This document shows, in pieces, positions 10,132 to 59,141 of a stretch of 64,000 bases of DNA. The DNA is from Deltaproteobacteria bacterium. GTDB taxonomy: Bacteria > Myxococcota > Kuafuiibacteriia > Kuafuiibacteriales > Kuafuiibacteriaceae. Position 1 is the first letter of the stretch. The number at the start of each line of letters is the position of its first letter. The notes below the pieces were generated by a model. The model was not told where the DNA came from and ran no database searches. It saw only the letters and a list, made by a program, of their open reading frames with translations. The DNA lies in NCBI GenBank assembly GCA_040218735.1, contig JAVJQW010000021.1, forward strand, positions 91,629 through 155,628. The letters are read 5' to 3'. The position numbers were made by a program, and so were the translations under genes.

Positions 10132-10138
10132 GGACACG

Positions 10139-13100: not shown

Positions 13101-13225
13101 CAGCCGATGAGCACTTCGCTGCACTCCTTACAGGCGACCTCGAACCCGGGGCCGTTCGCGTAGGCGGCGGGGGCACCGAGCATCGTGAGTAACGTCGCGA
13201 CTCGGCTGAGCGTTTGGGGGGACAT
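10139..13225 (-). CDS. Large (about 1028 aa) Cys-rich secreted protein, hypothetical
   Basis: Start MSPQTLSRVATLLTMLGAPAAYA (signal peptide; ATG as the complement of 13223-13225). It is dense in Cys (CKECSEVLIGCLETCSGRGCDTC...). The C-terminal third looks like EGF/Cys-knot modules (CSCETNADCAFPDEPDLKCV..., CEEECTSSAQCATLGFPSHYVCD). There is no recognisable enzymatic motif. Confidence 0.8.
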   Translation of the reverse strand: MSPQTLSRVATLLTMLGAPAAYANGPGFEVACKECSEVLIGCLETCSGRGCDTCVTSYETCLVKEGCENLKPNCDQCLEDAETCADQCAPGDENCLGVCTNTRDACWQLNDCDGPYVETTPICNYLERGIDDLRKEVTDSYSVVAPGVTTFAGIEKLEFGLDLPATNCFENPHTIPCAGRSYDTEWLIDEVTLSIRGIEFFHEVKSPTAQFLKHVSGGSSLGGISGWTGAQLRMNPSWGLSENEAVSLIGALPVPEDGAAPDADAFKANLGAVTLSEERVAALIEGSFGRTLADRLKSGNDSDACSGSLFCDNGRGLQFAWRGTYGVNQPDCDLGGCPPVGNRKSSPWVELTREAVGGATDQDLLVVDLDIEVLNGVDSDYDCPFGVAKPCAEPKGTKYNWLAEFGIQMKLEPQCVPGAGALSAIRFQPVDIQVDIEGGVPAVTTIAWIVDTACGIWGSISGNPPCSANDIVTGFVEEDITTAIAEETFIDDLDACPPAPVADIGPSGSITLDISAPSGTSAARKLGSNRFVRWARILQEAQPAAPAFQSLYGAHVNNVSITQPWNPQLADQIIGYSDPDAKQSFARLDEAQVSICVMTGMFEYDVDDDGDDETVRVCDLALNLDNVDLPLPLNTTVAPFKCLTNALPNPTNDARCELLAQIKAWAMQPEIMTHCIEHNANGTPLDQVLEDSWEGIAGAIQGCRANLPSVEKLIPVPSIELDIKTGREHTSDTFAFVDFSEPSSLTKSVYDSNKCRNRLSYSLTPNPHEYSQCGDPDDPNEWGLEGCPCRDVVVSQFDDILLDGGFPDGAGSYVAHGSYGPGQYCEDDTNEQIVCGKIVKNGIDEYAECMKCGDKTMIGCSCETNADCAFPDEPDLKCVGSPQEEGWPGSAPGTCLPDPGTSDGQEALEEMRWFCLDNCDAIDGYASHVGGCYFDQWDTKADHGVCVNTLNTCDGISQGTCEAENQMVCRDAGPPDVCEEECTSSAQCATLGFPSHYVCDNATFYPGHCVPPSCAGPSANPFFCQQYR

Positions 13226-13360
13226 GATATCGAGCTCCCTTCGGGTTGGTCGACGCGGGGGTTCGCGTCGTTCCTGGCCTCCTTCAGCGCGACTACGAGC
13301 GATCTGACGAAGAAAGAAAAACGAATGAATCGGTCCGCGGCGCGCCACTGCCGTGCCGAG

Positions 13361-24791: not shown

Positions 24792-25074
24792 TTGGGTCGT
24801 TCCATTCGAGCGAAGACAAACGTCGACGTCGCGAGGCGCGAACACGGACGGATCCGTGCGCACCTCGCCGGCGAACGTCGCCTCGGCGGTGCCGGTAGTA
24901 GGAGCAACGAGCGTGCCAAAGCGGCTCACCCCCTCCCGAAGCGTTCGAATCGACCGATTCGCGTGGGATTTCGGCACCGAACGGTCGGTGTTAGCTCTCT
25001 TACTGTCGGGTCGACGCGCAGGGACGGCACACGCCGCGTGCGGAACGTGACGCCCGAGATAGGATCTTGTCGAC

Positions 25075-27189: not shown

Positions 27190-27219
27190 CGTCGCGGTGT
27201 CGGATGGTATGGTCCCGCC

Positions 27220-28920
27220 GTGATTGGACCCTACGGCGGCCATCTGGTGGATGGCCTGGTAACGCCCGACCAAGCAGACGCACTCAAGGAAGCCTCCCGT
27301 GATTGGCCGTCCTGGACGCTGACGCCCCGACAGATCTGCGATCTGGAGCTCCTCCTGAACGGTGGTTTCTCGCCGCTCGATGGGTTCATGAAGCAGGCCG
27401 ACTACGACGGCGTCGTCGAGAAGATGCGCCTCGCGAGTGGCGTGCTGTGGCCGATGCCCATCACGCTCGACGTCCCGGAGGAGGTCGCCGAGAAGCTCGA
27501 GGCCGGTGGCTCCCTCGTCCTGCGTGACATCGAAGGGGTGATGTTGGCGGCGCTCGAAGTCGAGGACGTCTACCGCCCGGATCGCACCAAGGAGGCCGAG
27601 AAGGTCTTCGGGACCACGAACGTCGAGCACCCCGGGGTGAAGCACCTGTTGGAGGCGACGAACCCGGTCTACGTCGGCGGTCGCCTGCGCGGGATTCAGC
27701 TCCCGCTGCACTACGACTTCAAGGAGCGTCGCAATACGCCGCGCGAGCTCCGCAAGCGCATGGAGCTCAACGGCTGGTCGGACGTCGTCGCGTTCCAGAC
27801 GCGGAACCCGATGCACCGCGCCCACGCCGAGCTGACGATGCGCGCGAGCGCGGAGAAGAACGCGAAGCTGTTGATCCACCCGGTCGTCGGTATGACGAAG
27901 CCGGGCGACGTCGATCACTTCACGCGGGTGCGCTGCTACGAAGCGATCCTCGGCAACTACCCGCAGGGGGAGGTCGACCTGTCGCTGCTGCCCCTCGCGA
28001 TGCGCATGGGGGGCCCGCGCGAGTGCCTGTGGCACGCGATCATTCGGCGCAACTACGGCGCGAATCACCTGATCGTCGGGCGCGACCACGCCGGACCGGG
28101 CTCGGACTCGCAGGGCAACCCGTTCTACGGTCCGTACGACGCCCAAGCGCTGCTCAACGAGCACGGCGAGGAGATCGGCGTGAAGATGGTGCCGTTCCGG
28201 TTGATGGTCTACCTCGAGGACAAGAAGACCTACGCGCCGATCGACGAGGTGCCGAAGGACGAGAAGTACCTCACCATCTCCGGCACGCAGCTGCGCGAGA
28301 AGCTCGCGAACGGCGATGACATCCCGGAGTGGTTCACGTTCCCGTCGGTCGCGGCGGAGCTGCGCAAGAGCCACCCGCCGCGTTCGAAGCGCGGGCTCAC
28401 GGTGTTCTTCACCGGGCTCTCGGGCGCGGGCAAGTCCACGGTCGCCAACGTCCTGACCATGCGGCTCCTCGAGCACGGCGGGCGGAGCGTCACGCTGCTG
28501 GACGGCGACATCGTCCGCACGAACCTCTCGAGTGAGCTCGGCTTCTCGAAGGAGCACCGCGACATCAACATCCGCCGCATCGGCTTCGTGGCCTCGGAGA
28601 TCACGAAGGCCGGGGGCATCGCGGTGTGTGCGCCGATCGCGCCGTACGATGCGACGCGCAAGGAGACGCGCGAGATGGCGGAGAAGTATGGCGGGTACGT
28701 GCTCGTGCATGTGGCGACGCCCCTGGAGGTCTGCGAGCAGCGGGATCGCAAGGGCCTCTACGCGAAGGCGCGGGCCGGGATCATCAAGGAGTTCACCGGC
28801 ATCTCGGATCCCTACGAAGCGCCGCAGGACGCGGAGATCGTCCTCGACACCTCCGGCATCACGCCGGCGGACGCGGGCGAGCGGATCTGGGCGTACCTCG
28901 CGCAGCAGGGCTACGTCTGA
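27220..28920 (+). CDS. sat/cysC: Bifunctional sulfate adenylyltransferase (ATP sulfurylase) / adenylylsulfate (APS) kinase
   Basis: The N-terminal ATP-sulfurylase domain carries QTRNPMHRAH and GRDHAG motifs. The C-terminal APS kinase domain has the P-loop FFTGLSGAGKST and the loop DGD(I/N)VR...LGFS. The single 566-aa polypeptide synthesises PAPS. Confidence 0.95.
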   Translation: MIGPYGGHLVDGLVTPDQADALKEASRDWPSWTLTPRQICDLELLLNGGFSPLDGFMKQADYDGVVEKMRLASGVLWPMPITLDVPEEVAEKLEAGGSLVLRDIEGVMLAALEVEDVYRPDRTKEAEKVFGTTNVEHPGVKHLLEATNPVYVGGRLRGIQLPLHYDFKERRNTPRELRKRMELNGWSDVVAFQTRNPMHRAHAELTMRASAEKNAKLLIHPVVGMTKPGDVDHFTRVRCYEAILGNYPQGEVDLSLLPLAMRMGGPRECLWHAIIRRNYGANHLIVGRDHAGPGSDSQGNPFYGPYDAQALLNEHGEEIGVKMVPFRLMVYLEDKKTYAPIDEVPKDEKYLTISGTQLREKLANGDDIPEWFTFPSVAAELRKSHPPRSKRGLTVFFTGLSGAGKSTVANVLTMRLLEHGGRSVTLLDGDIVRTNLSSELGFSKEHRDINIRRIGFVASEITKAGGIAVCAPIAPYDATRKETREMAEKYGGYVLVHVATPLEVCEQRDRKGLYAKARAGIIKEFTGISDPYEAPQDAEIVLDTSGITPADAGERIWAYLAQQGYV

Positions 28921-40712: not shown

Positions 40713-42622
40713 TCAGGGCGGGGCGTCGAGGAACGTCTTGGCCTCGTCGTCGTCCAGCACGTCGAAGTACGCCTGCACGGTCGGCGCGACGTCCGTCAGG
40801 GACCAGGTCCCCGCCTTGATCTTCCGGTTGCTGAGTAACACACCTGGCACGTGCTGTGGGTCGACGCAGTGGTCGCCGCTCCACTTGTCCGTGTTCACCT
40901 CCAGGATCTGCCGGCCGATCTCCCCGAGCGCGGACTCGTCCGAGCTGCGGTAGCCGCGTGCGTACCCGACGATCAGGTCCGGCGTGCGATCCACGAACGC
41001 GCGCATCTCCGGCCGGAAGGTTCGGGTCACGACGCGCTCGCCGCTCTTGGGGTCCGTGAGGTTCTCCAGCTCGCGCGCGAGCGACTCGAGCACCCACGGC
41101 GCCTTCTCGGCGGTCACGATGCCTTCGGGCTCACGCCCCTCCAGGTTGAGGAAGATCTGATTCAACCCGAGCGCGTACGCGCGGGTCTTCGACCAGTCGA
41201 TGTGTCCGAGCACGGTCTTCTTGCGTTGGTTGGGCGGCGCGAGCGTGAGGAAGCCCTTCCGCGCCAGCCACGTGTTGAGGTGCACCTTGGTGTGGTACGG
41301 CCCGAAGCCGTGGTCGGACATCACGATCACCGCCGTGTCGTCGTCCGCCGCCTCCAGCACCTCGCCGATGACGCCGTCCATCTTCGCGTACAGATCCGGG
41401 ATCGTGTTCGCGAGCTTCTTTTCGGCCTCCGTCGCGTCGGGCTCCATCGTCCGCCAGAACATGTGCGAGACGAGGTCGACGCTCGAGAAGTAGAAGAACA
41501 GCAGCCCGTCGTCGAAGCGCGCGAGCTCGCGCTTCAACATCGCGTGCCGCTCCTCGAAGACGAGGTGCTCCTGCGCGAGGAAGTCCTCGTCCGACAGCAC
41601 GCCGCCGACGAGCGCCTTGGTGTCCTCCGGCATGCCCTGCGTGTAGAAGCGCCCCACGTCCGTCGCGATCTCGGAGGCGAAGGTGTCGGGCGCGGAGATC
41701 GGCTGCGCCGGAGAGAGCGGGTCGAGGTTGATCGGGCTGACGTAGATCGTCGGCGTCTCGCCGAGTGACTTCGCGTACACGCGCACCACCCCGGTGATCG
41801 AGACGACGTCCACAGACGGCGAGAACGAAATCTCGATCCAGTCCGACCACTCCCCTTCACGCAGCACCAGCTCCGTCTCACCGAGCCGAATCAACGCACC
41901 GTCCGCCTTGGGTCCGAAGTGCACGGTCACCGGGAGCTTCATCTCGGCGCCCGTCGGCGAGAGCGGATCCGGCGGTCCGTCCAGCTGCGAGGTGGCCTCG
42001 GTCGGGGTGAGCACGCGGAGCAGGTGCACGCGCCCGCCGCTCACGCGCTTCTTCGCGAGCAGCTCGCGCTCGGTCGTGAAGACCTGGAACAAGCCCGGCG
42101 TGCCCATCAGGTCCGGCGTCCCCATCCCGGAGAGCACGCGCGCCTTGCTCGGCTCGATCGGTGGATAGTTCGCGGGGATCTTCACGACGGTGGTCGGCGC
42201 GCCGTCGTCGGCGATCGCGGACCAGAACGGCCGCCCGCGCCGCAGGAGCTTCACGCCGCCGCCCATCGGGAGCACGTACTCACCCAGCTCCATGACGTAC
42301 GAGGGGCCCTCCGCCTTCGACGTCGACAGGTACGGCGACATCGAGTGCGGGTCGCGGTGCACGAAGTCGTAGATGCCGTGCACGTGCGACTCGTGCCCGG
42401 TGAGGAAGTTCGACCACGCGACGGGGGACTGCGGCGGCACGCTGGTGCCGAGGCGGAACAGCTCGTTCTCGACCGCGAGCCGAGTGAGGTTGGGCGCGCG
42501 ACCCTCCTCCATGAATTTCGCGAGGAGGTTCGGATCCATCCCGTCCACCGCGATGATGATCATCTTCGGGTTGTCACTCGACGAACACGCGGCCGCGAGC
42601 AGGACGAGCGGGAGGAGGCGTC

Positions 42623-42626
<4 letters not shown>
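40713..42626 (-). CDS. Alkaline-phosphatase-family / type I phosphodiesterase-nucleotide pyrophosphatase (NPP)-like lipoprotein
   Basis: Start MRRLLPLVLLAAACSSSD (LAAAC lipobox; ATG as the complement of 42624-26). IIIAVDGMDPNLLAKFMEEGRAPNLTRL matches the N-terminal metal-binding motif of PF01663. Later motifs are MSDHGFGPY and WSGDHC. Its ATG overlaps the stop of the upstream paralogue (ATGA). Confidence 0.85.
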
Positions 42627-44724
<2,098 letters not shown>

Positions 44725-44728
<4 letters not shown>

Positions 44729-46071
44729 TGAACGTATCCGAGGGTGCGCAGCTTCTCGACGAGCTCCGGGCTCACGTCCTTGCGAACCTTCCGCTGCGCG
44801 GCCGCGTAGTTGGCGAGGGTGCCGTTGTAGTAGCGCGCCATCTTCAGGCGCGCGTCGGGTTGGGTGTCAGCGATGTCCTTCAGCTCGAAGGGATCGTCGC
44901 GGAGATCGAAGAGTTGATCGGGCCCGCTCGAGAGGCGGAAGAGTTTGTAGTCGAGCCCGGTGATCGCGAGTTTGTCACCGGGCTCCCAGCCTTCACGGTG
45001 CCGGTGCACGCGCTCCGACAGCACGTACGGGCGTATGACCCGCCCGTCGAAGAGATCGATCCCCTCGAACTGCCGGTACAGCGCGTCGTCGAAGGGGAGG
45101 TCGAGGAGCCGTCCGAGCGTCGGGAAGATGTCGATGGTCGTCGCCATCCGCACGTTGCGCGCGGCGGCGAGCTCCAGCGATGCCGGCGGTTTGATGATCA
45201 GCGGGACGAGGATCTCCTCGTTGTAGATGCGCCCGTGGTCGTGCCAGTCGTGCTGCCAGAGCCCCTCGCCGTGGTCCGCGGTGATCACCACCGTGGTCTC
45301 TTCGTAGCGACCGGTGCGTTTGATCGCGTCGAGGAGACGTCCGAGGTGCTCGTCCATGTACGCGATCTCACCGTCGTACAGGTTGTTGATTTCGAGGACG
45401 TCGAACCGGACGTTGCCGATGCGGTGCTCGAGCTTCGTCCCGGTCTTCTTCACGAAGTCCTCGATGCCGTCCTTTTTGTCGAACTTGTCGTCGTACGGCG
45501 CCGGCGGCTCGTAGGGATCGTGGGGGTCCCAGAAGTGCACCCACATGAAGAACGGGCGGTCGTCGAAGCGCTCGAACTGCGTCATCGCGAGGTCCGCGGT
45601 GATCGCGCCGGGGCGGGGCCCGTCCTTGGGGTCGTCGTAGTGCTGGAAGCCGGAGGAGATCCCGGTGCCGTCCGCAACCGGGCTTGCGCTGACGACCGCC
45701 GCCGTCTGGTAGCCGGCCTTTTCGAACACCTCCGCGACGAGCCGAAGGTCCGGCTCCGACTCGAAGACCAGCCCATTGCGTACGATCTCGTGTCGGCGGG
45801 GCGGGGTGCCCGTCATGATCGAAGTGTGGGCGGGGAGCGTCGTGGCCATCGGGGTCGCGACGTTCTCGAAGACGATGGCTTCGTTCGCGAAGGCGTCGAG
45901 GTTCGGCGCGGTGTTCCGGAAGTAGCCGTAGGTCGGGAGGTGGTCGGCGCGGAGGGTGTCGATCGTGATCAGCAGGACGGACCGCCGCGACTGCGGATCG
46001 TCGTTCGCCGGACTCGAAGTCTTTGCGCACGCCGCGAGCGCCAACGCTGCGAGGGGACCCCACCGTCGCAT
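44725..46071 (-). CDS. Sulfatase-like (alkaline-phosphatase superfamily) lipoprotein, non-canonical active-site motif
   Basis: MRRWGPLAALALAACAKT carries a lipobox. Sulfatase motifs are SVLLITIDTLRADHLPTYGY, VVITADHGEGL and the Ca-binding DHG. The FGly position reads T-T-L-P-A-H instead of C/S-x-P-x-R. Its stop overlaps the next gene's ATG (ATGA). Confidence 0.85.
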
Positions 46072-49271: not shown

Positions 49272-50352
49272 ATGGGAGCGATGCCGCGGTTGCCCTTCCT
49301 GCTCGCACTCATGATCCCCTCTGCCGCGTGGGCCTCCCCGGACTTCGAGGCCTCGGAGCAGGCCCGTATCCGACGGCACCTGCTCCGCGCGGAGACGGCG
49401 GCCTCGTGCGCGAGCGACGCCCGATCTGTCGAAGGCTCAGCGTACGCGCCGCGCGGCTGCGCTCGACGCCCTCGCGCGGTACCGCGAGGCGGGGCGCTTC
49501 CCCGTCAACGTCGACGTCGTGGGGCGAGCCCCGGTCTTCGTCGACCACCGCGGGGTGCGCTGCGCGATGGCCGAGCTCCTGCACGTGACCGGTGAGGACG
49601 CGCTGGTGGCGCGCGTCGCGGCGACGAACAACCTCGCGCGGATCCACGATCTGGCGTCCGACGAAGGGCTGACCCGTTGGCTCGACCACCACGGGCTGAC
49701 CGTCGACGAGGCGGCCGCGATCCAGCCGACGTACCGCTGGTGCTACGACCGCAGCGAGGCGTTCTGCCCGTTCGCACCGACCACGGGGATCGTACGCGTC
49801 GAGCTCATCGACTGGGTGCCCGACGCGACCGAGCAACGCTTCCGCGTGACCGAGGTGCTGTCGGGGACCGTCGCGCAGGTCGCAGACGAAATCGTGGGCC
49901 GGACGTACGGCACGAGGCGCGAAGAGGTCCAAACCGCGGTCGCAGTGCTCTTGCCCCGTAGCTCGGTCCAACGCGTGCTGGGGCTTCGGGACGGCGAGGT
50001 GTTCGTCGCCGAGGACCCGTGCGACGTCGATGTGTCGGTGCCGCTCGAAGACGTGGTGTCCCTCTTGCTCGCCGAGGATTGCGCGGACCGACTCGAGCGC
50101 CGCGATCCCGTGTGGGCTGGACGTTGGTGCACCACACGTGCGGGGCCGGACTGCCCGGTCGCGCCGGACGCCGGCTTCCCGTCCTACGATGCCGGCGGAG
50201 CGATCGACGCCGGGGCGGTGTCCGACACGGGGGTGTCGCCGTCGGTGGAGCCCAACGGATGCCGCTGCACGACGCGCGGTCGGGCGTCGCCGTGGGCGTT
50301 ACTCCTGCTCGTTCTTCTTCAGGCTCGCCTTGCCCTGCCACGCCGGAAATAA
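49272..50352 (+). pseudogene. Frameshifted paralogue of the 37990-39105 MYXO-CTERM protein (probable pseudogene, or a sequencing or programmed frameshift)
   Basis: In frame 0 (from ATG 49272/49281) the sequence reads MGAMPRLPFLLALMIPSAAWASPDFEASEQARIRRHLLRAETAASCASDAR, aligning with the intact paralogue's signal peptide and VRLHLRAAQDFLAERD. From about 49415-49432 the homology continues only in frame +1 (PDLSKAQRTRRAAALDALARYREAGRFPVNVDVVGRAPVFVDHRGVRCAMAELL... compared with DLSALRPQQRIRRAERLADLDAYIRRGRFP...VDAAGTHCAMAFL). A conserved LTVDEAAAIQPTY segment and a MYXO-CTERM-like end (NGCRCTTRGRASPWALLLLVLLQARLALPRRK) are retained. Confidence 0.55.
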
Positions 50353-50922
50353 CGTCACGTCCACGCCGGCGACCGAGAGGGCGCGCTGCGCGACGAAGTC
50401 GGCGAGGTCCGCGAACGACTCGGGCTGCTGGTAGAACGCCGGGTTCGCGGGGACGACGGTAGCGCCGGCGCGCGCGAGCTTCAGCATGTTCTCGAGGTGG
50501 ATGATCGAGAACGGGGTCTCGCGCGGGACGATCACCAGCGGGCGCCGCTCCTTCAGCGTCACGTCCGCGGCGCGCTCGATGAGGTTCGACGCCAGGCCGT
50601 TGGCGATCCCCGCGAGGGTCTTCATCGAACACGGCACCACGATCATCCCGTCGCAGCGCGCGGAGCCGCTCGCGATGCGCGAGGTCTGATCACCCACCGC
50701 GTGCATCGTGATCGAGCCGGGGTGCTCGCCGTACGCAGATTCCAGCCACGCCTTCACGTCGCCGTCGAAGGCGCCGAATGACGTCTCCTGCTCCAACGTG
50801 AGCTTGCCGTACGCAGACACCACGACGTCCACGTCGTGCCCCGCGATCAGGAGCGCGCGCACCACGCGCTCGAAGTAGAGCGCGCCGCTCGCGCCGGTGC
50901 CTGCGACGGTGTAGCGGCCCAT
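50299..50922 (-). CDS. ubiX: UbiX-family flavin prenyltransferase (prenyl-FMN synthase)
   Basis: MGRYTVAGTGASGALYFERVVRALL... and MIVVPCSMKTLAGIANGLASNLIERAADVTLKERRPLVIVPRETP match canonical UbiX/Pad1 motifs. Length is 207 aa. Confidence 0.9.
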   Translation of the reverse strand: MGRYTVAGTGASGALYFERVVRALLIAGHDVDVVVSAYGKLTLEQETSFGAFDGDVKAWLESAYGEHPGSITMHAVGDQTSRIASGSARCDGMIVVPCSMKTLAGIANGLASNLIERAADVTLKERRPLVIVPRETPFSIIHLENMLKLARAGATVVPANPAFYQQPESFADLADFVAQRALSVAGVDVTLFPAWQGKASLKKNEQE

Positions 50923-50923
50923 G

Positions 50924-52288
50924 TCACTTCCTCCCCAGGAGCGCGTTGACGTCGACCCGATCCCACACGTCCTGCGGGACGGTGTTCTTCGTGACTTCTC
51001 GCGCGCCGACGATGCGGCGCGTGGCGTCGATCCCCATCTTCGTTACGCGCCCCTCGGCGTTGGTGCACGAAGGGTCGAGCGGCGTCCCGAGCGTGTCTTC
51101 GAACAAGTGCACGTCGACGTTCGCTTGAGTAGATAGCGCCATCGCGCCGAGTACCTGCCGCAGGTCGCTGGGGTCGACGGTCGCGTCCACGACGATCACG
51201 TGTTTGCGGTAGATGTCCGCGTTCAGCAGCGCGTCCATCACGCGCTGCGGCTCGTCGTCGTCGGCTTTGTCCATCGCGACGACCAGCGTGAACGGCGCGG
51301 GCAGCGCGACGCCGACGACGTTCTCGCTCGCCGCCATCGCGTCCCGCTTCGCGCGGCTCTCGATCGCGAGCATCGGCAACACGAGGTGCTCCATGTGCCC
51401 GCTGACCACGTCCTGGAAGATCGCGTCGTTCCGTTCGCAGATCGCGGTGACTTCGAACACCGGCGTCGTGGTCGCGCCGGTGCCGTACCCCGTGAACTCA
51501 CCGAAGGGGCCCTCGGGCGTCGTGACGTCGTGTTTCACCACGCCCTCCAACACGATCTCCGCGCGCGCCGGTACCAGGACGTCCTGCGTCTTGCCGCGCA
51601 CGAGCTCGAGCGGCTCGCCGAGGAGCCCGCCGATGACGTCGTACTCCGCGACGTCCGCCGAGCCGGAGTAGAGCGCTCCGAGCATCCACGACGGGTGCGC
51701 GCCGATGAACACGCCGATCGGCATGTCGCGTTTCGCGGCGACGTACTTTTGGAAGATGCCGTCGAGGTGTTTGCCCTTCTCGATGAAGATGCCGGTGTGG
51801 TTTCGGTCGATCACCATCAGCCGGTGAAAGCTCAGGTTGGTGACGCCGGTGTCCGGGTCCGCCGCGCAGACGATCGCGCAGGTGACGTACGGCGCGTCGG
51901 CGTCGTGCTCGTGGTAGACGAGCGCCGGGAAGCGCGACAGATCCACGGCCTCGCCGGTGTCGACGTTTTCGTGCACCGGCGCGTCCTCGACGATGTTCGG
52001 GGCGACGAGGTGGTCCACCGCGGCGTCGTAGCGTTCGACCGCCTCGCGGAGCCCGCAGTCCAGGGCGAGCGCGACACGACCCTGGGACCCGCAGACGTTG
52101 GTGACCAACGGGTACCGCGTGCCCGCGACCTTCTCGAAGTACACCAGCGGTGAGCGTCGCTTCTCTTCGAGGCGCGCGACGATCGCGCACGTCTCGAAGC
52201 GCGGGGAGACCTCGTGCTCCACACGGAGCAGATCACTCTTGCGACGCTGTTCGAGCAGCTCCAGGAAGCCACGGAGATCGGCGGTCAC
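50924..52288 (-). CDS. UbiD-family (prFMN-dependent) reversible decarboxylase
   Basis: DLRGFLELLEQRR..LLRVEHEVSP is the UbiD N-terminal signature. The body runs through ...GPFGEFTGYG...VDATVDP. The most plausible start is GTG at 52288 (VTADLRGFL), which overlaps the upstream ligase stop (GTGA). The track's N-terminal extension to 52462 is Arg-rich. Confidence 0.85.
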   Translation of the reverse strand: MTADLRGFLELLEQRRKSDLLRVEHEVSPRFETCAIVARLEEKRRSPLVYFEKVAGTRYPLVTNVCGSQGRVALALDCGLREAVERYDAAVDHLVAPNIVEDAPVHENVDTGEAVDLSRFPALVYHEHDADAPYVTCAIVCAADPDTGVTNLSFHRLMVIDRNHTGIFIEKGKHLDGIFQKYVAAKRDMPIGVFIGAHPSWMLGALYSGSADVAEYDVIGGLLGEPLELVRGKTQDVLVPARAEIVLEGVVKHDVTTPEGPFGEFTGYGTGATTTPVFEVTAICERNDAIFQDVVSGHMEHLVLPMLAIESRAKRDAMAASENVVGVALPAPFTLVVAMDKADDDEPQRVMDALLNADIYRKHVIVVDATVDPSDLRQVLGAMALSTQANVDVHLFEDTLGTPLDPSCTNAEGRVTKMGIDATRRIVGAREVTKNTVPQDVWDRVDVNALLGRK

Positions 52289-53766
52289 GTCGAGGGCACC
52301 AGCGACGGGATCTTGCCGCGGTTGATCTTCCCCGACCCGGTCTTCGGGAGCTCCGCGACGACGTGCAGCTCGCGCGGCACACGCACGAAGCTCATGTGTT
52401 CGAGGCAGTGCGGTCGCAGCTCGGCCATCGTCAGCGACTGGCCGGCCTCCAACACGACACACGCGATGAGACGCTCGCCCATGCGGTCGTCGGGCACCGC
52501 GAACACGGCGGACTCGACGATCGCGTCGTGGCGATTCAGGACATCCTCGATCTCCTGCGGGAACACACGCTCGCCTGCGAGCTTCATCATGTCGGACTTG
52601 CGCCCGACCAGGAACAGGTGCCCGTCGTCGAGGCGCCCGAGGTCACCGGTGCGCAGGCGCCCCTTCGCGTCGAGGCGCCCGGAGGTGACCTCGTCGCCCG
52701 ACACGTAACCCTTCATGATGTTCGGACCGCTCGCGACGACCTCGCCGACCTCCCCCAGGGGGAGGACCTCGTCGTCGTCGCCGAGGATCTCCACGAGCAC
52801 GTTCGACAGCGGACGGCCCGCAGTCCCCCGACGACCGAAGAGATCTTCGGGCGACGCGTACGTGATGCGCGGCGCGGCCTCCGTCTGACCGTAGGCCGTG
52901 TGGATACCGACGCCCTCGCCCAGCGCCTCGCGCAACTTGTCTTGCTCGGTGAGCGACAGCGCGCCGCCGGTGCACAGGACGTACTTCAGGTCCGGCGTCT
53001 CGGCCGCCGCGAACGACTTCATCAGCGACTTGAAGTGATAGGGCACGCCCGAGAATCCGGTGACGCGGTGATCGACGATCTCCTGCACCACCTTCTTGGG
53101 GAAGTGAAAGCCGGCCGAGAAGACGAGGGTCCCGCCGATCATCGCGTGCATCAGGATCTGCATGCGCCCGTGCACGAAGTAACTCGGCACCACGACCAAG
53201 ATGCTGTCGTTGGCGTCGAGGTGCATCCAGTCGTTCGCGGCCGTGAGGTTCGACGCGAAGTTTTCGTGCGACAGCATCACGCCCTTCGGGCGCCCCGTCG
53301 TGCCGGACGTGTAGACGACGAGCGCGACGTCGTCCGGCTCGCGCGGGTTGGCTGGCCGCACCTCGGACTCCCCGAGCTCGAGGATGTTCGACACCACCGC
53401 AGGTTTGTGCCCGAGCGGCGTGCCGCCCTCGATCTTTTCGAGGAGCGCGGGCTCTGCGACGAGCGCCTTCGGTTTTGCCTCTTCGAGGATCGTCTCGATC
53501 GTGCCGCGCTGCGCGAGGCCGGGGAGGTCGACGTTGACCGCCCCGAGCTTCAACACCCCCCAGAACGCGACGAACCCCTCCAGCGCGTTGCCCCACAACA
53601 GGGACACGCGGTCACCCGGGGCGACGCCGATCGAGGCGAGGTGCGCCGCGACCGCGTTGCTTCGCCGGTCGAGCGCACCGTAGGTGATGGAGGTGTCCGG
53701 GAAGACCGCGGCGAGGTGCTCGGGGTCCCGGTCGGCGGCGCGCGTCAGGAAGTCGACGAGGCGCAC
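52285..53766 (-). CDS. AMP-dependent synthetase/ligase (adenylate-forming enzyme, DltA/acyl-CoA-synthetase-like)
   Basis: LVVYTSGTTGRPKGVMLSHEN (AMP-binding motif I), YGQTEAAPRITY, GDLGRLDDGHLFLVGRKSDMMKLAGERVFPQEIE and the C-terminal LPKTGSGKINRGK. Start is taken at GTG 53766 (VRLVDFLTRAADRDPEHLAAVF); no ATG occurs within 60 codons, so the start is uncertain. Confidence 0.85.
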   Translation of the reverse strand: MRLVDFLTRAADRDPEHLAAVFPDTSITYGALDRRSNAVAAHLASIGVAPGDRVSLLWGNALEGFVAFWGVLKLGAVNVDLPGLAQRGTIETILEEAKPKALVAEPALLEKIEGGTPLGHKPAVVSNILELGESEVRPANPREPDDVALVVYTSGTTGRPKGVMLSHENFASNLTAANDWMHLDANDSILVVVPSYFVHGRMQILMHAMIGGTLVFSAGFHFPKKVVQEIVDHRVTGFSGVPYHFKSLMKSFAAAETPDLKYVLCTGGALSLTEQDKLREALGEGVGIHTAYGQTEAAPRITYASPEDLFGRRGTAGRPLSNVLVEILGDDDEVLPLGEVGEVVASGPNIMKGYVSGDEVTSGRLDAKGRLRTGDLGRLDDGHLFLVGRKSDMMKLAGERVFPQEIEDVLNRHDAIVESAVFAVPDDRMGERLIACVVLEAGQSLTMAELRPHCLEHMSFVRVPRELHVVAELPKTGSGKINRGKIPSLVPST

Positions 53767-53771
53767 GCGGT

Positions 53772-54017
53772 TCAGCTCTTGCGGCTGTCGATGTACGACG
53801 CGAGCTTGACGACGCTCCCGAACTGCTCCGGATCGATGTCGTCGAGGTCGACCTGGAAGCCGAAGTTGTCCTCGATCCAAACGACCAACTCCATGATCGC
53901 GGTGGAGTCGATGACGTCGGCGAGGTTGGTCTCGCGCTCGAGGTCCGACTTACCGGCCGCGAGCTCGCTGCTGATGTACGTGAGGAGCTTCTGTTCGATC
54001 TCCGCCGTTTTGCTCAT
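53772..54017 (-). CDS. Acyl/peptidyl carrier protein (phosphopantetheine-binding)
   Basis: 81 aa: MSKTAEIEQKLLTYISSELAAGKSDLERETNLADVIDSTAIMELVVWIEDNFGFQVDLDD. The D-S-T/A motif sits at the canonical serine position. ATG (complement of 54015-54017) overlaps the upstream stop (ATGA). The 251-aa track ORF upstream part is Arg-rich junk. Confidence 0.85.
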   Translation of the reverse strand: MSKTAEIEQKLLTYISSELAAGKSDLERETNLADVIDSTAIMELVVWIEDNFGFQVDLDDIDPEQFGSVVKLASYIDSRKS

Positions 54018-55111
54018 GACTCGACTGCATACTCCCGGATTTTTTCCCGCGCAACGCTCAGTCCGAGGCCTGGATCGTCGGGATCCACCCCGAAGGGGGC
54101 CGGCGGTTCGACCAGAACATCGTGAGACAACAGGTGGTGGTTCTGCCCCTTCCCGTCGAGGCAGTCGAACCCCTCGACCCGCGTCGCAAAAACCTCGGTC
54201 GCACGCGTGAGCACCCCGGTCTCCCCCACCATCGTCCCGAGGTGAACCCGCAGGTCGTGCGCGCGGGCCACTTCGACGATCCGCTTCGCGCGCACCATCC
54301 CGCCCAGCTTGCCGAGGCGCACGTTGAACACGTCCGCGGCCCCCATCGCCGCGATGCGCTCCGCGTCCGCGAGGTGGATCAGGGCCTCGTCGACCATCAC
54401 GCGGTGCCCCGCCTCCCGGATGCGGACGAGGCCGTCGAGATCGGCGGCGGGGATCGGCTGCTCGATCGACGCGATGTCCACGCCGTCGAGCGCGTTCAGC
54501 TTCTCGATCGTCTCCTCCACGGTCCACGCTTCGTTGGCGTCGAGGCGGATCGGGAGCTTCAGCTTCTCCCAGACGATGCGGATACGCTCCGCGTCGTCGT
54601 CGAGGCCGACCTTCACTTTGATGTGTCGACGCCGCTTGAACCTCAGGAGCGCGCAGTGTTTGGCGAGCGCGTCCGTCGCGACCTCGAACCCGATGATCAC
54701 CCCGGCGGGGAGCGCCTCGATGGACGCGGGCCCGAGGAACGCGCCGGCGCTGGTGTTCGTGGCGCGGCCGACGAGGTCGAGGAGCGCGAGCTCGAACCCG
54801 CCGAACGTCGCGAGGCGTGACTCGTGGTCGGCGATCGCATCGTCCGCAAACGCGGCGGCGGCCTCGACCGAGTCGATCGACCGGCCCGCGAAGGCGGCGA
54901 AGACCGCGGCGGCGTGTTCGGCCTTCACGGTCTCGATCGTCTCGCCGGTCACGTACGCGCGCGGTTGGATCTCGCCCCAGCCCTCGACGCCGTCGGCGTG
55001 CAGGCAGACGAGGAGCGCATCCGATGCGTGGCGCGCGTGGCTCGCGTGCTCGAACGACCCCTTGAACGGGATGCGGACGTGGAACAGCTCGTAGCGTTCA
55101 ATCGGTCCCAC
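54014..55111 (-). CDS. Enolase-superfamily enzyme of the mandelate racemase/muconate lactonizing enzyme (MR/MLE) family (dipeptide-epimerase/OSBS-like)
   Basis: KVKVGLDDDAERIRIVWEKLKLPIRLDANEAWT, then ...DVFNVRLGKLGGM...AHDLRVHLGTMVGETGV. The metal-ligand D/E/D pattern and KxK motif fit MR/MLE. Confidence 0.8.
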   Translation of the reverse strand: MGPIERYELFHVRIPFKGSFEHASHARHASDALLVCLHADGVEGWGEIQPRAYVTGETIETVKAEHAAAVFAAFAGRSIDSVEAAAAFADDAIADHESRLATFGGFELALLDLVGRATNTSAGAFLGPASIEALPAGVIIGFEVATDALAKHCALLRFKRRRHIKVKVGLDDDAERIRIVWEKLKLPIRLDANEAWTVEETIEKLNALDGVDIASIEQPIPAADLDGLVRIREAGHRVMVDEALIHLADAERIAAMGAADVFNVRLGKLGGMVRAKRIVEVARAHDLRVHLGTMVGETGVLTRATEVFATRVEGFDCLDGKGQNHHLLSHDVLVEPPAPFGVDPDDPGLGLSVAREKIREYAVES

Positions 55112-56696
55112 GGAAGCGCTCCGTGATCTCGAACCGCCCGACGAACGCGGCGTCGCGGGTGAGGTGCACGTGTTTGTACTGAAGGTCCGCGCCGCCGGCG
55201 GCGATCTTCTCCGCCTTGAGCGCCGCGTAGCTCCCGCTGGCGACTTGCCACACCTCGGGGGCGCCGAGCCGGCGTGACTTGCGTTTGCCCGCGTACTCGC
55301 CGTTGTACTTCCCGATCGCGGCGTCGAGCGTCGCGGCGGCGTGTTGGAGCATCGAACGATCGGCGGTGCCGCGGGTCTCGACGAGCAACACGTAGTGCGG
55401 CAGCTCGCCGTCGACGACGGGCGCGAGGGTGAACGACTCCACGTGTTGGTTGTCGAGGATCTCGGTGGCCGCGGCGGTCACCTGCGCTTCGGTGAGCTTC
55501 TCTCCCGTCAACGACGAGGTCCGGCCCGTGCGGTGCAGGAACTCCACGACCGGCGTCGTGCCCTCGAAGCGCTTCACCCGGACGACGTCGCCGATGTCGT
55601 AGCGGTAGAGGCCGGCGCGGTTGGTGAGCACCACGACGTACTCGCCGCCGACCTCGGCTTCGTGCGGGAGGATCGTCTCCGTCGAGTCTTCGGGCCTCAG
55701 CTCGTAGAAGCAGATCCCCACGCCGAGCGCGCCGCCCGACTCGCCGTCGGCGAGCGGGATCGCGAGGATGCCCTCCGACGCCATCGACACGTAGTCACGC
55801 ACCGCGACGCCGCCGAGGTGGGGCTCGAGGCGTTCGAGGTACGGCGCGAGCATCGGCGAGCGCCAGGACACCGCGAGCTCGAGCGCCGGGAAGGCCTTCG
55901 CCGCCGGGAGCCGCGGGAAGTCCGCGGCCAGGAGACCGCGCAGTTCTTTCGCGCGCGCGGGGTTCGGCGCGATCGCTTCGAGCACCGCGGCGCGGGCTTC
56001 GTCGTCGATGGAATACACATCGGACAACGTGCCGTTTTCGACGTCGGCGAGGAGCCGATCGAGCTGGTCTTCGAGGGTCTTGAACAGCAGCAGGATCGTG
56101 CTCGGGTTGAGCGCCATGATCGCGGTGAACTCGCGTTCGAGTAACACCCGGGCGATCGCGTAGTAGCGCGCGTCGTGATCCGCGATCTTCGAAACGGCGC
56201 GCGGGACGACGGGTTTCTTGCGTTGGGTCGCCGCCGTGACGCTCGCCCAGTACGCGCTCTCGGAGCTCGTCGGCAGCCCGCCCGCCGACGGCTCGGGCCG
56301 TCCAGCGTCCGAGAAGTTCGTGACCATGCGCCCCTTCGCGACGCCGGGATGCTGAGAGAATACGAGGTCCCAGAAGATCCCGAACGCCCGCGACTTGTCG
56401 CGGATGAAGCTTTGCGTGACCGGGATGTACTTGGGTCGCGCGGTCGAGCCGCTCGTGGTGAAGAAACGCTTCGTCGGCTCGGTGGTCAGGACCGCGGCTT
56501 CACCGCGGTCGATGCGCTCGACGTCGTCGCGAAAGCCCTCATAGTCCCGAATGGGCACCGCGCGGCGGAAGTCGTCGACGGTGCGAATCGCGCCGAAGTC
56601 GTGCGTGCGTCCGAACGCGGAGTCGACGTTCGGCGCCACGATCGAGTCCAGGAGCCACGCGGACTGCGTCGCCTCGGAGTCGGCGAGTGCGGCCAT
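55098..56696 (-). CDS. GH3-family (acyl-acid amido synthetase-like) adenylating protein
   Basis: FFTTSGSTARPKYIPVTQSF (GH3 motif TSGTS...K.IP) and YASSE-like VSMASEGILAIPL. The 533-aa product matches the size and layout of bacterial GH3 (PF03321) proteins. Start is taken at MAALADSEAT. Confidence 0.75.
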   Translation of the reverse strand: MAALADSEATQSAWLLDSIVAPNVDSAFGRTHDFGAIRTVDDFRRAVPIRDYEGFRDDVERIDRGEAAVLTTEPTKRFFTTSGSTARPKYIPVTQSFIRDKSRAFGIFWDLVFSQHPGVAKGRMVTNFSDAGRPEPSAGGLPTSSESAYWASVTAATQRKKPVVPRAVSKIADHDARYYAIARVLLEREFTAIMALNPSTILLLFKTLEDQLDRLLADVENGTLSDVYSIDDEARAAVLEAIAPNPARAKELRGLLAADFPRLPAAKAFPALELAVSWRSPMLAPYLERLEPHLGGVAVRDYVSMASEGILAIPLADGESGGALGVGICFYELRPEDSTETILPHEAEVGGEYVVVLTNRAGLYRYDIGDVVRVKRFEGTTPVVEFLHRTGRTSSLTGEKLTEAQVTAAATEILDNQHVESFTLAPVVDGELPHYVLLVETRGTADRSMLQHAAATLDAAIGKYNGEYAGKRKSRRLGAPEVWQVASGSYAALKAEKIAAGGADLQYKHVHLTRDAAFVGRFEITERFRGTD

Positions 56697-56815
56697 GTAG
56701 GCCTCGGCTTCGCGCTTGCGGAACACGCCTCGATCGATACCAGCATCGGCGGTCCGAGACGAACGTTGACTGCGCATTCGGGACGTAACAGGAACGGTCC
56801 CGCGGACGACGCGCC

Positions 56816-58273
56816 ATGCTCTTCAACTCGTTCGAGTTCCTGATCTTCTTCCCGGTCGTCGTCACCCTCTACTTCGCGGTGCCGCATCGTCTGCGGTGGG
56901 CTCTGCTGCTCTGCGCTTCCTACTTCTTCTACATGTGGTGGGTCCCGGAGTACGCGCTACTGATCGTCTTCTCCACCGTCGTCGACTACATCGCGAGCAA
57001 CCGGATGGGCGGCCTGAAGACGAAGGCCGAGCGACGCCCGTACATGTGGGTCAGCGTCGCGGTGAACCTCGGGCTGCTGTTCTTCTTCAAGTACTACAAC
57101 TGGGTGAACGAGAACGTGACCGCGGTGGTCGGGCGCGAGCTGCTGCCGCTGTCCCATCTGCTGCTGCCGATGGGCATCTCGTTCTACACGCTGCAGACGA
57201 TGAGCTACACGCTCGACGTCTACCGCGGGAAGCTGAAACCCGAGAAACACTTCGGCGTGTTCGCGCTGTACGTGTCGTTCTTCCCGCAGCTCGTCGCGGG
57301 GCCGATCGAGCGCGCGCCGAACCTGCTCCACCAGTTCTATCAGAAGCACAAGTTCGAGTACGCGCGTGCGGCGAACGGCCTGCGCCTGATGGCGTGGGGC
57401 ATGTTCAAGAAGGTCGTCGTCGCGGACCGGCTGTCGATGTTCACGTCGAGTGTGTACGTCGAGCCGCAGGCGCAAGACGGGTTGACGCTCGCGATCGCGA
57501 CCGTGCTCTTCGGCTTCCAGCTCTACTGCGACTTCTCGGGTTACTCGGACATCGCGATCGGCACCGCGCAGATCATCGGCTTCGATCTGATGGAGAACTT
57601 CAAGCGGCCGTACTTCTCGAAGAACATCGAGGAGCTGTGGGGGCGCCGCTGGCACATCTCGCTGACGAGCTGGATCAAGGACTACGTCTACAACCCGCTC
57701 GCGTTCATGTCGCGGCGCGCTTCGACCGCGCGCAAACACGCCAACATCCTCATCATCTTCCTCATCACCGGCCTGTGGCACGGCGCGGCCTGGCGGTTCG
57801 TGTTCTGGGGGATGCTCAACGGCGTCTACGTGCTCGCGCACGTGCTGACGGAGAAGCCGCGCAAGAAGCTGCGCGAGGTCACGGGGCTCGAGAAGCACCC
57901 GCGCGTGCTCGCGGCGCTCGGGATCGCGTTCACGTTCTTCATCTTCGTGGTCGGCTCGGTGCCGTTCCTCGCGAAGGACATGAGCGACGCCTGGTACATC
58001 CTCACGCACATGTTCGGCGGCTGGAGCGGCGCTGCGCTCTCGGCGTTCCTCGCGAACACGGGCGCGACGATCGGCAAGACGAACTTCGCGCTCGGGCTGA
58101 TCGGCGTGGCGATCCTCTTCACGGTGGAGCTCTTCCAGGAGCGCGTCCGCATCCGCGAGTACCTGAACGCAAAGCCCGCGTGGATCCGGTGGTCGCTGAC
58201 GTACGGCCTCATCCTCTACATCGCACTGTTCGGCGTCTTCGAGTACGACGAGTTCATCTACTTCCAGTTCTGA
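56816..58273 (+). CDS. MBOAT-family membrane-bound O-acyltransferase (DltB/AlgI-like)
   Basis: MLFNSFEFLIFFPVVVTLYF..., ...GISFYTLQTMSYTLDVYRG..., ...NFKRPYFSKNIEELWGRRWHISLTSWIKDYVYNPL... carry the conserved His (WHIS) and the AlgI/DltB N-terminal pattern. It is multi-pass hydrophobic. Confidence 0.95.
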   Translation: MLFNSFEFLIFFPVVVTLYFAVPHRLRWALLLCASYFFYMWWVPEYALLIVFSTVVDYIASNRMGGLKTKAERRPYMWVSVAVNLGLLFFFKYYNWVNENVTAVVGRELLPLSHLLLPMGISFYTLQTMSYTLDVYRGKLKPEKHFGVFALYVSFFPQLVAGPIERAPNLLHQFYQKHKFEYARAANGLRLMAWGMFKKVVVADRLSMFTSSVYVEPQAQDGLTLAIATVLFGFQLYCDFSGYSDIAIGTAQIIGFDLMENFKRPYFSKNIEELWGRRWHISLTSWIKDYVYNPLAFMSRRASTARKHANILIIFLITGLWHGAAWRFVFWGMLNGVYVLAHVLTEKPRKKLREVTGLEKHPRVLAALGIAFTFFIFVVGSVPFLAKDMSDAWYILTHMFGGWSGAALSAFLANTGATIGKTNFALGLIGVAILFTVELFQERVRIREYLNAKPAWIRWSLTYGLILYIALFGVFEYDEFIYFQF

Positions 58274-58283
58274 CGGTGCCGAC

Positions 58284-59141
58284 GTGAAGAAGTTCCTCAC
58301 CAAGTTCGCGATCCACGCCGTCACGCTCCCGGTGTTGTTCATCCTCATCTACCGCGGCGCGGTGGAGGGGCATCAGTGGCTCCGCACGCGAGGCTCGACG
58401 GAGGCGCTCTACGTCATCGGCGACTCACGCGTCGTGCACGGGCTCGACATCGTGACGCTGGAGGAGAAGCTCGGCGTCCCGGTGCACAGCTACGCGACGC
58501 ACGGGATGAGCACGTACAACATCTACGTCATCGCGGAGCTGCTGCCCGACGGTGCGAAGGTGATGTTGTCGCCGAGCCTCGGGATGTTCCTCCGCGAGAA
58601 GGAGTTCATGTCCTTCGAGTCGGCGATCTCCCTCGCCGGGCTCTACCAGCTGTACGACCTCGGCTACGAGTGGTGGTACTTCGACAAGGTCCTCACCGCG
58701 AACCGTTACCCGTTCGGCGTGCAGCACTTCCGCTTCAACCGCGAGGCGTTCCCGATCACCGACGGCCCCGACCTCGAGAAGAGCGAGCGCTTCCGGCGCA
58801 TCTACGAGAACCTGAAGTCACCGCCCCCGCGCTTCGCGAAGAACGAGCGCATGTTCGAGCTGGCATTGGAGATCATGCTCGAGAAGGGCTGCGACGTTCG
58901 CGTCGTCGAGTTCCCGCTCACCGAGCAGCTGCGCACGATGCGCAAGGCGTCGATCTTCGCGAGCTTCACGGACGAGATCGAGATCCTGAAGGACCCGCGC
59001 CTGAAGGTGTGGCTCGACGTCGAGCTCGAGGACCCGGAGGGCCGCAACCTCTTCTACGACATGGACCACCTCAACGAGCGTGGCCGAGGGCTCATGACCG
59101 CGTGGGTCTACGAAAACGTCGTCGGACCGTCCGCGCCGTAA
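58284..59141 (+). CDS. DltD/AlgJ/AlgX-like SGNH-fold partner protein of the MBOAT
   Basis: It is 10 nt downstream of the MBOAT. A single N-terminal TM (KFAIHAVTLPVLFILIY) is followed by YVIGDSRVVHG (GDS(L) block I) and a later DHLNERG (D-H pair). This is the canonical DltD/AlgJ arrangement. Confidence 0.75.
   Translation: MKKFLTKFAIHAVTLPVLFILIYRGAVEGHQWLRTRGSTEALYVIGDSRVVHGLDIVTLEEKLGVPVHSYATHGMSTYNIYVIAELLPDGAKVMLSPSLGMFLREKEFMSFESAISLAGLYQLYDLGYEWWYFDKVLTANRYPFGVQHFRFNREAFPITDGPDLEKSERFRRIYENLKSPPPRFAKNERMFELALEIMLEKGCDVRVVEFPLTEQLRTMRKASIFASFTDEIEILKDPRLKVWLDVELEDPEGRNLFYDMDHLNERGRGLMTAWVYENVVGPSAP

Follow-up and report, generated by a model that had tools for sequence, protein, structure and literature searches.

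A UbiD-family (de)carboxylase in a gene cassette of Myxococcota and Acidobacteriota with carrier-protein, adenylating-ligase and enolase-superfamily genes

The six-gene operon

The genes considered here lie in a 64-kb stretch of DNA (the window; positions 91,629 to 155,628 of contig JAVJQW010000021.1, assembly GCA_040218735.1) from a 'Deltaproteobacteria' genome assigned to the Myxococcota; all positions follow the numbering of this window. Six genes on the minus strand, transcribed in the order GH3, enolase-superfamily gene, carrier protein, AMP-ligase, UbiD and UbiX (Table 1), form one translationally coupled operon, in which a UbiD-family enzyme that is predicted to depend on prenylated flavin mononucleotide (prFMN) is encoded together with the means to activate and tether an acid. 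The junctions between these genes are tight. The GH3 gene overlaps the enolase-type gene by 14 nt, and the enolase-type gene overlaps the carrier-protein gene by 4 nt (ATGA); 5 nt separate the end of the carrier-protein gene from the start of the ligase gene; the TGA of the ligase (52287-52285) again overlaps the GTG of UbiD (52288-52286) by 4 nt, giving GTGA; and a single nucleotide lies between the UbiD stop and the UbiX start (TGAcATG). Raw lists of open reading frames (ORFs) are noisy at the G+C content of the window (~68%), but the minus-strand frames from 50299 to 56777 are nevertheless unambiguous. The start of the GH3 gene is uncertain: an ATG at 56777 would give 559 aa and a GTG at 56726 would give 542 aa, the latter being the start annotated in the metagenome-assembled genome (MAG) GCA_040223155.1, which holds a 97% twin. 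All six proteins bear the catalytic signatures of their families.

An earlier note on this DNA had described a UbiD/UbiX pair coupled through GTGA to an adenylating ligase, with a carrier protein upstream. Gene boundaries and Pfam and NCBIfam matches confirm that this arrangement is real. The unit delimited in that note (50299-53766) comprised correctly identified genes but was cut short, as the upstream enolase-type and GH3 genes belong to the same operon; missing from its inventory were these two genes and a divergent MBOAT/DltD-like pair (56816-59141), to which we return below.

Table 1. Features of the operon and of the adjoining divergent gene pair, in window coordinates
Feature	Position	Strand	Family matches (E-value) or remark
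UbiX-family flavin prenyltransferase, prFMN supplier, 207 aa	50299-50922	-	Flavoprotein (1.2e-43), TIGR00421
UbiD-family prFMN-dependent (de)carboxylase (predicted), 454 aa, GTG start	50924-52288	-	UbiD_N/UbiD/UbiD_C, TIGR00148
Adenylate-forming ligase, 493 aa, GTG start	52285-53766	-	AMP-binding (4e-79), AMP-binding_C
Stand-alone carrier protein, 81 aa	53772-54017	-	PP-binding (1e-6)
Enolase-superfamily enzyme, MLE subgroup, 365 aa	54014-55111	-	MR_MLE_C (1e-35), MR_MLE_N
GH3-family acyl-acid amido synthetase	55098-56777 (or 56726)	-	GH3, GH3_M, GH3_C
Divergent GH3/MBOAT intergenic region	56778-56815		38 bp (89 bp if GH3 starts at 56726)
MBOAT-family membrane O-acyltransferase, DltB/AlgI-like, 485 aa	56816-58273	+	MBOAT (1.3e-25)
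ORF285, membrane-anchored SGNH-fold protein, DltD-like, 285 aa	58284-59141	+	

Placement of the UbiD enzyme

Both members of the pair are clearly recognized at the family level. UbiX matches TIGR00421 (ubiX_pad) at 188.8 bits against a cut-off of 108.9, while UbiD exceeds the gathering scores of UbiD_N, UbiD and UbiD_C and matches TIGR00148 at 291.3 bits (cut-off 244.85). With a UbiX gene beside it, the UbiD protein is predicted to be a prFMN-dependent (de)carboxylase. Its scores fall below the cut-offs of all the function-specific models: the ubiquinone equivalog NF008175 (154.3 bits; cut-off 788), the menaquinone model TIGR03701 of the futalosine route, SCO4490 type (192.5; 495.9), VdcC (225; 650), BagN (137; 1000), and the beta (137; 469) and alpha (96; 565) subunits of phenylphosphate carboxylase. 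Among solved structures the furandicarboxylic acid (FDCA) decarboxylase PtHmfF (6h6v/6h6x) is the top match, at 215 bits and 36% identity, followed by the BsdC/VdcC type (149 bits), E. coli UbiD (136), TtnD (127), AroY (119), HudA (117) and Fdc1 (113). Phthaloyl-CoA decarboxylase (PCD), to whose chemistry the earlier note had likened this locus, is matched in its N-terminal part only (36.5 bits, E 2.4e-8), and the resemblance is one of logic rather than of relatedness.

It is conceivable that this is an ordinary UbiD/UbiX or MqnL/UbiX-like decarboxylase pair of quinone biosynthesis, standing beside unrelated genes by chance. The Pfam family names suggest as much, as does the label that the PDB depositors gave to the top match ('3-polyprenyl-4-hydroxybenzoate decarboxylase and related decarboxylases'). 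However, the scores against both quinone equivalogs are a fraction of their cut-offs, E. coli UbiD scores below HmfF, no prenyltransferase or other ubi or mqn gene lies nearby (ubiquinone genes are absent within ~10 kb), and what is conserved beside UbiD is a carrier protein, a ligase and an enolase-type enzyme. As far as sequence can show, equivalog scores and gene context together rule out a role in ubiquinone synthesis, as the earlier note had anticipated, and likewise in menaquinone synthesis, and we regard this explanation as exceedingly improbable.

Residues N151, R156, H174, E215, E259-GPFG-E264 and H301 are invariant across 36 homologues, and the N-x4-R motif, the His/Glu metal ligands and EGPFGE align with those of PtHmfF, BsdC and E. 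coli UbiD. If the roles that we take from Fdc1 apply, the Asn, His and Glu residues would be metal and phosphate ligands, and both catalytic Glu residues of a Glu-Arg-Glu network would lie in EGPFGE. H301 aligns with H296 of PtHmfF, where BsdC and E. coli UbiD instead have Glu. This His has been reported as key for furan-type substrates in PtHmfF; it marks the whole HmfF-like branch, being present in 31/31 and 38/40 members of other clades.

A neighbor-joining tree of 83 metagenomic and genomic relatives with fragments of PtHmfF, BsdC and E. coli UbiD, computed with no support values, recovers the window UbiD within the HmfF-like branch as a separate clade. For Fdc1, AroY, VdcC, PCD, TtnD and HudA the comparison was made through PDB and NCBIfam scores. 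The window pair is like HmfF/HmfG in the length of its UbiD (~450 aa), its cofactor and Glu-Arg-Glu residues, its His and its UbiX partner, and unlike it in that the window UbiD belongs to a clade of its own with 14 clade-specific invariant residues. From sequence, then, the enzyme is best described as a member of a distinct HmfF-like clade and not as a quinone-pathway enzyme. The clade is large, with at least 120 clusters at 90% identity, the best 120 of which are all 55-97% identical to the window UbiD. MAGs of 'Deltaproteobacteria', Myxococcota, Myxococcales and Thermoanaerobaculia contribute its members, together with a single cultured strain, Sorangium sp. So ce1335, whose version of the operon lies on NZ_CP150363 at ~11.693-11.714 Mb; many members carry the label '2,5-furandicarboxylate decarboxylase 1' from the Joint Genome Institute (JGI).

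Partner enzymes

The ligase lies below the cut-off of every NCBIfam model that it matches (best PRK06187, 337 bits against 476). Its best single-domain PDB relatives, at 173-192 bits, are feruloyl-, oxalate-, FadD13-, o-succinylbenzoate- and malonyl-CoA ligases, and they include activators of diacids (oxalate, malonate, o-succinylbenzoate). LgrA, nominally the top PDB relative at 249 bits, ranks first only because two A-domain matches (113 + 134 bits) were added together. The nucleotide motifs of the ligase can be read in its translation. In its A4 motif, SYFVHG, a Val stands where adenylation domains of nonribosomal peptide synthetases (NRPS) carry the Asp that contacts the amino group; this replacement argues against an amino-acid-activating A domain and indicates that the substrate is an acid without a free alpha-amine. 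The ligase is of the acyl-CoA-synthetase type, and is presumed to load the carrier protein. The latter has its phosphopantetheine-site Ser within DSTA, invariant among 10 cassette members, and its best solved relatives are type II peptidyl and acyl carrier proteins (2my5, PigG, PltL), DltC being matched only at E 0.77.

In the enolase-type enzyme, KVKVG, LRLDAN, IEQP, MxDE, RLGKxGG and GTMVGETG are invariant across the 10 cassette members. The protein contains KxK, the metal ligands D/E/D and a Lys after strand 6, the combination that we take to define the muconate-lactonizing-enzyme (MLE) subgroup. Its scores against MLEs, N-acylamino-acid racemases and dipeptide epimerases are nearly the same (83-93 bits), so that no single reaction can be named for it. 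All equivalog cut-offs likewise lie above its scores (TIGR01928, 117.5 of 200.65 bits; TIGR02534, 113.2 of 334.95; DgcA, 100.6 of 400); the models searched cover o-succinylbenzoate synthase, muconate cycloisomerase and N-acyl-amino-acid racemase functions. The GH3 protein has three GH3 domains above their cut-offs, and its translation contains the nucleotide motifs TSGST, SMASEG and YRYDIGD. The closest solved relative is JAR1 (110 bits), and the OlsH equivalog is matched at 108 bits, against a cut-off of 620, in the C-terminal half only.

Conservation of the cassette in relatives

Fourteen genomic contexts of the UbiD clade were compared, namely the window and those labeled L010, L093, L009/L097, L004, L003, L006, L008, L011, L012, L013, L098, L001 and the P0018 contig. 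An enolase-type gene, a carrier protein and a ligase stand beside UbiD in 13 of the 14, and in most a 4-nt overlap joins UbiD to the ligase gene or to a short-chain dehydrogenase/reductase (SDR) gene interposed between them. Enolase-type enzyme, carrier protein, ligase and UbiD make up a core that stays together in Myxococcota/'Deltaproteobacteria' and in Acidobacteriota. Because the same gene order recurs across at least two phyla, the arrangement is not a product of chance, and the conservation of the link across phyla upholds the view of the earlier note that the coupling to the ligase and the carrier protein is functional. UbiX lies at most 10 kb away in 8 contexts.

Around this core the cassette varies. 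GH3 occurs in 8 of the 14 contexts; it is absent from L008, L011-L013 and L098, and in L006 an NRPS stands in its stead. L011-L013 and L098 hold an SDR-enolase-carrier-ligase-UbiD version with neither GH3 nor NRPS. An SdhA/TfrA-like flavoprotein is found in 6 contexts, and some add a PhyH hydroxylase, an alpha/beta-hydrolase (directly upstream of GH3 in L001, L004 and the P0018 contig), a 4HBT thioesterase, a LysE exporter (L003) or a resistance-nodulation-division (RND) pump (L009). A tblastn search of the 64-kb window found none of the SdhA-like flavoprotein, SDR, PhyH, alpha/beta-hydrolase, 4HBT or LysE genes. In L008 (10001-16081), a Myxococcota MAG, UbiD is accompanied by a 481-aa protein without a family match, an SdhA-like flavoprotein and UbiX.

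Two Thermoanaerobaculia contigs present a further arrangement: in L006/L007 (1-16060), a block of carrier protein, ligase, SDR, UbiD, PhyH, flavoprotein, hydrolase and enolase-type genes lies directly downstream of three condensation-adenylation-thiolation modules of an NRPS. The organization of these contigs suggests that the product of the cassette serves there as an NRPS building block.

Given the affinity of the UbiD with HmfF, the cassette might instead be a catabolic module for furan or aromatic dicarboxylates or for muconate-type compounds, in the style of HmfF/HmfD or of the beta-ketoadipate pathway, with an incidental carrier protein. In the Hmf pathway, an AMP-forming ligase, HmfD, goes on to activate the monoacid that HmfF produces. 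The nearest UbiD of known structure is an FDCA decarboxylase and the JGI labels say the same; muconate cycloisomerases score best against the enolase-type enzyme, if all within the narrow range given above; and in the relatives the alpha/beta-hydrolase weakly matches 3-oxoadipate enol-lactonase and the SDR resembles 3-hydroxybutyrate dehydrogenase. Against this stand the modest identity to PtHmfF and the separate position of the clade, the presence in 13 of the 14 contexts of a dedicated carrier protein whose Ser is invariant, and GH3/NRPS partners and exporters that point to synthesis. Genes for an uptake transporter, a regulator, the oxidase HmfH or a furoyl-CoA dehydrogenase were not seen, nor were other hmf catabolic genes (hydroxymethylfurfural oxidase, furoyl-CoA genes) in the 14 contexts examined. 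The carrier, enolase-type and GH3/NRPS partners of the window UbiD suggest biosynthesis rather than catabolism, and we consider a catabolic module improbable.

The GH3 gene invites comparison with amino-lipid synthesis. OlsH is a characterized bacterial GH3 that makes N-acyl-ornithine with ATP, the O-acylation being carried out by the alpha/beta-hydrolase OlsI; like the window GH3, it belongs to a family that proceeds by ATP-dependent adenylation to an amide and is encoded beside an acyltransferase. In a pathway of this kind, an OlsH-like GH3 would N-acylate an amino acid with a fatty acid, and the ligase and carrier protein would supply a second chain for O-acylation by the alpha/beta-hydrolase (in relatives) or the MBOAT protein (in the window); the enolase-type enzyme would racemize the N-acyl amino acid, and UbiD would tailor a carboxylate of the head group or chain. 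Weak matches of the GH3 and carrier proteins to the OlsH and ACP_for_OlsHI models are consistent with this, as are the position of the alpha/beta-hydrolase gene upstream of GH3 in three contexts, the long-chain fatty-acid ligase that is the top NCBIfam match of the ligase, and the presence of N-acylamino-acid racemases among the best enolase-family matches. However, these scores are far under their cut-offs, five contexts lack GH3 and a sixth has NRPS in its place, there is no precedent for an HmfF-like UbiD that acts in lipid synthesis, and for OlsH no UbiD or enolase-type partner has been described. We judge an amino-lipid pathway, too, to be an unlikely explanation.

Sister UbiD clades (36-42% identity; L014-L045, for example L023 at 10001-12804) show what part of the cassette is shared more widely. 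An AMP-ligase, ~30% identical to the window ligase, lies directly downstream of UbiD in 11 of 17 sufficiently flanked loci, and no carrier protein, enolase-type gene or UbiX lies near UbiD in the L014-L045 loci; the UbiD-ligase pair is a free-standing two-gene module in these clades. The partnership of UbiD and ligase is therefore older than the cassette. Such a pairing could also reflect carboxylation, the other possibility raised in the earlier note: UbiD would carboxylate a (hetero)aromatic or alkene substrate, and the unfavorable equilibrium would be pulled as the ligase, at the expense of ATP, at once adenylates the new carboxylate and joins it to the carrier protein as a thioester. Genes for anaerobic benzene and naphthalene carboxylases adjoin aryl-CoA ligase genes. 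UbiD reactions are reversible—HmfF has been reported to catalyze the reversible decarboxylation of FDCA—and translational coupling joins the ligase gene to that of UbiD in the window and in most relatives, with the pair alone conserved in the sister clades. However, the enolase-type enzyme and the SdhA-like flavoprotein use pre-existing carboxylates, which fits more easily with a diacid precursor; the extra small subunits and ATP-dependent partners of known UbiD carboxylases are not seen; and nothing about the organisms or the gene contexts suggests a setting of high CO2 or of anaerobic degradation of aromatics. A carboxylation trap is a minority possibility, and a rather doubtful one.

A proposed carrier-dependent route

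The explanation that we favor, tentatively, is a carrier-dependent route to a small specialized metabolite or acyl donor, in which a diacid is tethered at one carboxylate and UbiD removes the other. The substrate would be a dicarboxylic acid, or an acid with two carboxyl ends. The ligase would adenylate one carboxylate and thioesterify it onto the phosphopantetheine arm of the carrier protein; the enolase-type enzyme would abstract the alpha-proton at the other, free carboxylate, and elimination, cycloisomerization or isomerization would then yield an alpha,beta-unsaturated or heteroaromatic acid. In relatives, the SdhA/TfrA-like flavoprotein or the PhyH hydroxylase may be an alternative installer of the unsaturation. 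UbiD, loaded with prFMN made by UbiX, would release the free-end carboxylate as CO2, leaving an unsaturated or heteroaromatic acyl-carrier protein, and GH3 would form an amide with an amine or amino acid, a role that NRPS modules may fill in Thermoanaerobaculia. Tethering could precede decarboxylation, following the logic of PCD, or come after it, following that of HmfF and then HmfD.

The requirement for two carboxylates follows from the chemistry of the enzyme families. Enolase-superfamily enzymes deprotonate the alpha carbon of a free carboxylate that is bound to metal, UbiD enzymes take a carboxylate off, or put one on, a carbon that is alpha,beta-unsaturated or (hetero)aromatic, and SdhA/TfrA-type flavoproteins act at the alpha,beta position of carboxylates by desaturation. 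Since all three need a free carboxylate and the ligase uses one, a second is required. It is also consistent with a biosynthetic route that the varying partner is amide- or peptide-forming (GH3 in 8 contexts, NRPS in 1) and that exporters are found nearby (LysE, RND). PCD offers a precedent for the logic alone: there, too, a diacid is thioesterified at one end and a UbiD enzyme removes the other carboxylate, with activation, UbiD and UbiX genes clustered as in the window. PCD differs in its use of CoA in place of a carrier protein, its catabolic role and its want of a GH3 or enolase-type partner, besides the low score noted above. The biosynthetic pairs TtnD/TtnC, SmdK/SmdJ, Tri10/Tri9 and BagN/BagM resemble the window in that a UbiD enzyme and its own UbiX are encoded in a cluster with carrier proteins, but none of them has a conserved enolase-carrier-ligase-UbiD block, and TtnD is a distant relative at 127 bits.

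Several observations weigh against this route. No enzyme of the operon reaches a function-specific equivalog cut-off. Among candidate substrates of the fumaryl/acryloyl, muconate, o-succinylbenzoate-type, furan-type and N-acyl-Asp/Glu kinds, none rose beyond general plausibility. The ligase is only modestly similar to diacid ligases, a similarity that extends to fatty-acid ligases, and enzymes of the MLE subgroup are racemases as often as eliminases. L008 is a clade member without carrier protein, ligase or enolase-type gene, and the window does without the flavoprotein, SDR and hydrolase of its relatives, so that the chemistry may differ between variants. Access of a UbiD enzyme to a phosphopantetheine-tethered substrate is purely hypothetical. 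The secondary-metabolite enzymes TtnD, SmdK and Tri10 all act on the free acid, reportedly after its release and late in the pathway, and none on a carrier-tethered one.

The reversible (de)carboxylation that UbiD enzymes catalyze has drawn intensive study with a view to C-H activation and CO2 fixation. To our knowledge, only a handful of their natural substrates are known. The cassette defines a large environmental clade of these enzymes, with the cluster count given above, two or more phyla and a single cultured Sorangium strain among its sources. Literature searches that combined UbiD with GH3, carrier protein, NRPS, muconate and myxobacteria found the cassette described nowhere in the searchable literature; the proteins are ordinary members of known superfamilies, and any novelty would lie in their combination. 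With its UbiD enzyme tied to a carrier protein, a ligase and an enolase-type enzyme, the cassette would bring prFMN chemistry into biosynthesis on a carrier-protein template, and would point to a new building block for amides made by GH3 and NRPS enzymes. Were carboxylation instead the true direction, the cassette would be a natural example of UbiD action driven by ATP-dependent trapping, which we know only from engineered systems in vitro.

The divergent MBOAT/DltD-like pair

Two genes are transcribed divergently from the GH3 end of the operon. Their MBOAT protein matches the DltB model TIGR04091 at 148.7 bits (cut-off 375), has DltB as its sole solved relatives (E 1.7e-27) and contains the WHG His motif; it may alternatively be of the AlgI/PatA type. 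DltD is the best structural match to the predicted structure of ORF285, which has a membrane anchor and a Ser/Asp/His triad. A single-sequence AlphaFold prediction for this protein was unusable (predicted local distance difference test score of 32), and the usable model came from a 5-sequence alignment. The ORF285 family is very rare, with four homologues in a collection of 5.8 billion proteins. Three of these lie beside the same MBOAT gene and GH3 operon; the most distant (50% identity) lies away from the cassette, which makes the association of the MBOAT pair lineage-specific.

In all 4 genomes of the narrow lineage (the window, L010, L093 and L097) the pair is divergent to GH3, across a gap of 86-132 bp in the latter three, and the adjacency is kept even where the insertion of an RND pump splits UbiD-UbiX from the ligase. 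A sigma-70 consensus scan of the GH3/MBOAT intergenic region found no site, and the promoter/terminator consensus scan was uninformative. The association may be functional, given the shared regulatory region, or it may be mere inherited synteny.

With this pair, the window lineage brings together the four functional types of the Dlt system, namely a ligase, a small carrier, an MBOAT protein and a membrane-anchored SGNH protein. The components are nonetheless unlike those of Dlt. The window ligase is of the acyl-CoA-synthetase type and has no alpha-amino-binding Asp, unlike the D-Ala-specific DltA; the carrier protein is not DltC-like and the MBOAT protein is under the DltB cut-off, as noted above; Dlt has no counterpart for GH3, the enolase-type enzyme or UbiD/UbiX; and the window host belongs to a Gram-negative-type lineage. 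If the carrier-dependent route holds, its acyl-carrier product is perhaps handed, in this lineage, to the adjacent DltB-like MBOAT and DltD-like proteins. In a bolder version, which we put forward as speculative and rather unlikely, UbiD would use a carrier-tethered substrate, as the first such prFMN enzyme, and a Dlt-like MBOAT/DltD-fold pair would then use the acyl-carrier as its donor to esterify an envelope polymer or an exported acceptor in a Gram-negative-type bacterium—a Dlt analogue without D-alanine. The divergent pair would make Dlt-style transfer of a non-alanine acyl group testable.

Neighboring genes

The operon is flanked by sulfatase/phosphodiesterase genes, an FG-GAP/ASPIC protein, an NlpC/P60 protein and proteins without assignment. 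Two very large minus-strand ORFs at 10139-13591 and 20079-25127 (~1150 and ~1680 aa) have a coding-type G+C bias and no Pfam match at E <= 1e-5. The plus strand at 35334-37898 has an 854-aa ORF with weak matches to two domains of the major vault protein, the repeat (Vault_3, 5.5e-9) and the shoulder (MVP_shoulder, 1.9e-7), which is unusual in a bacterium. Downstream of the operon, three consecutive alkaline-phosphatase-superfamily genes (sulfatase/phosphodiesterase; 40713-46071, minus strand) keep their position in L009, L010 and L093. A fused ATP-sulfurylase/adenosine-5'-phosphosulfate-kinase gene (27190-28920, plus strand), for synthesis of 3'-phosphoadenosine-5'-phosphosulfate, shares the window with several sulfatase-type genes, and in the related context L009 a faint sulfotransferase match lies nearby.

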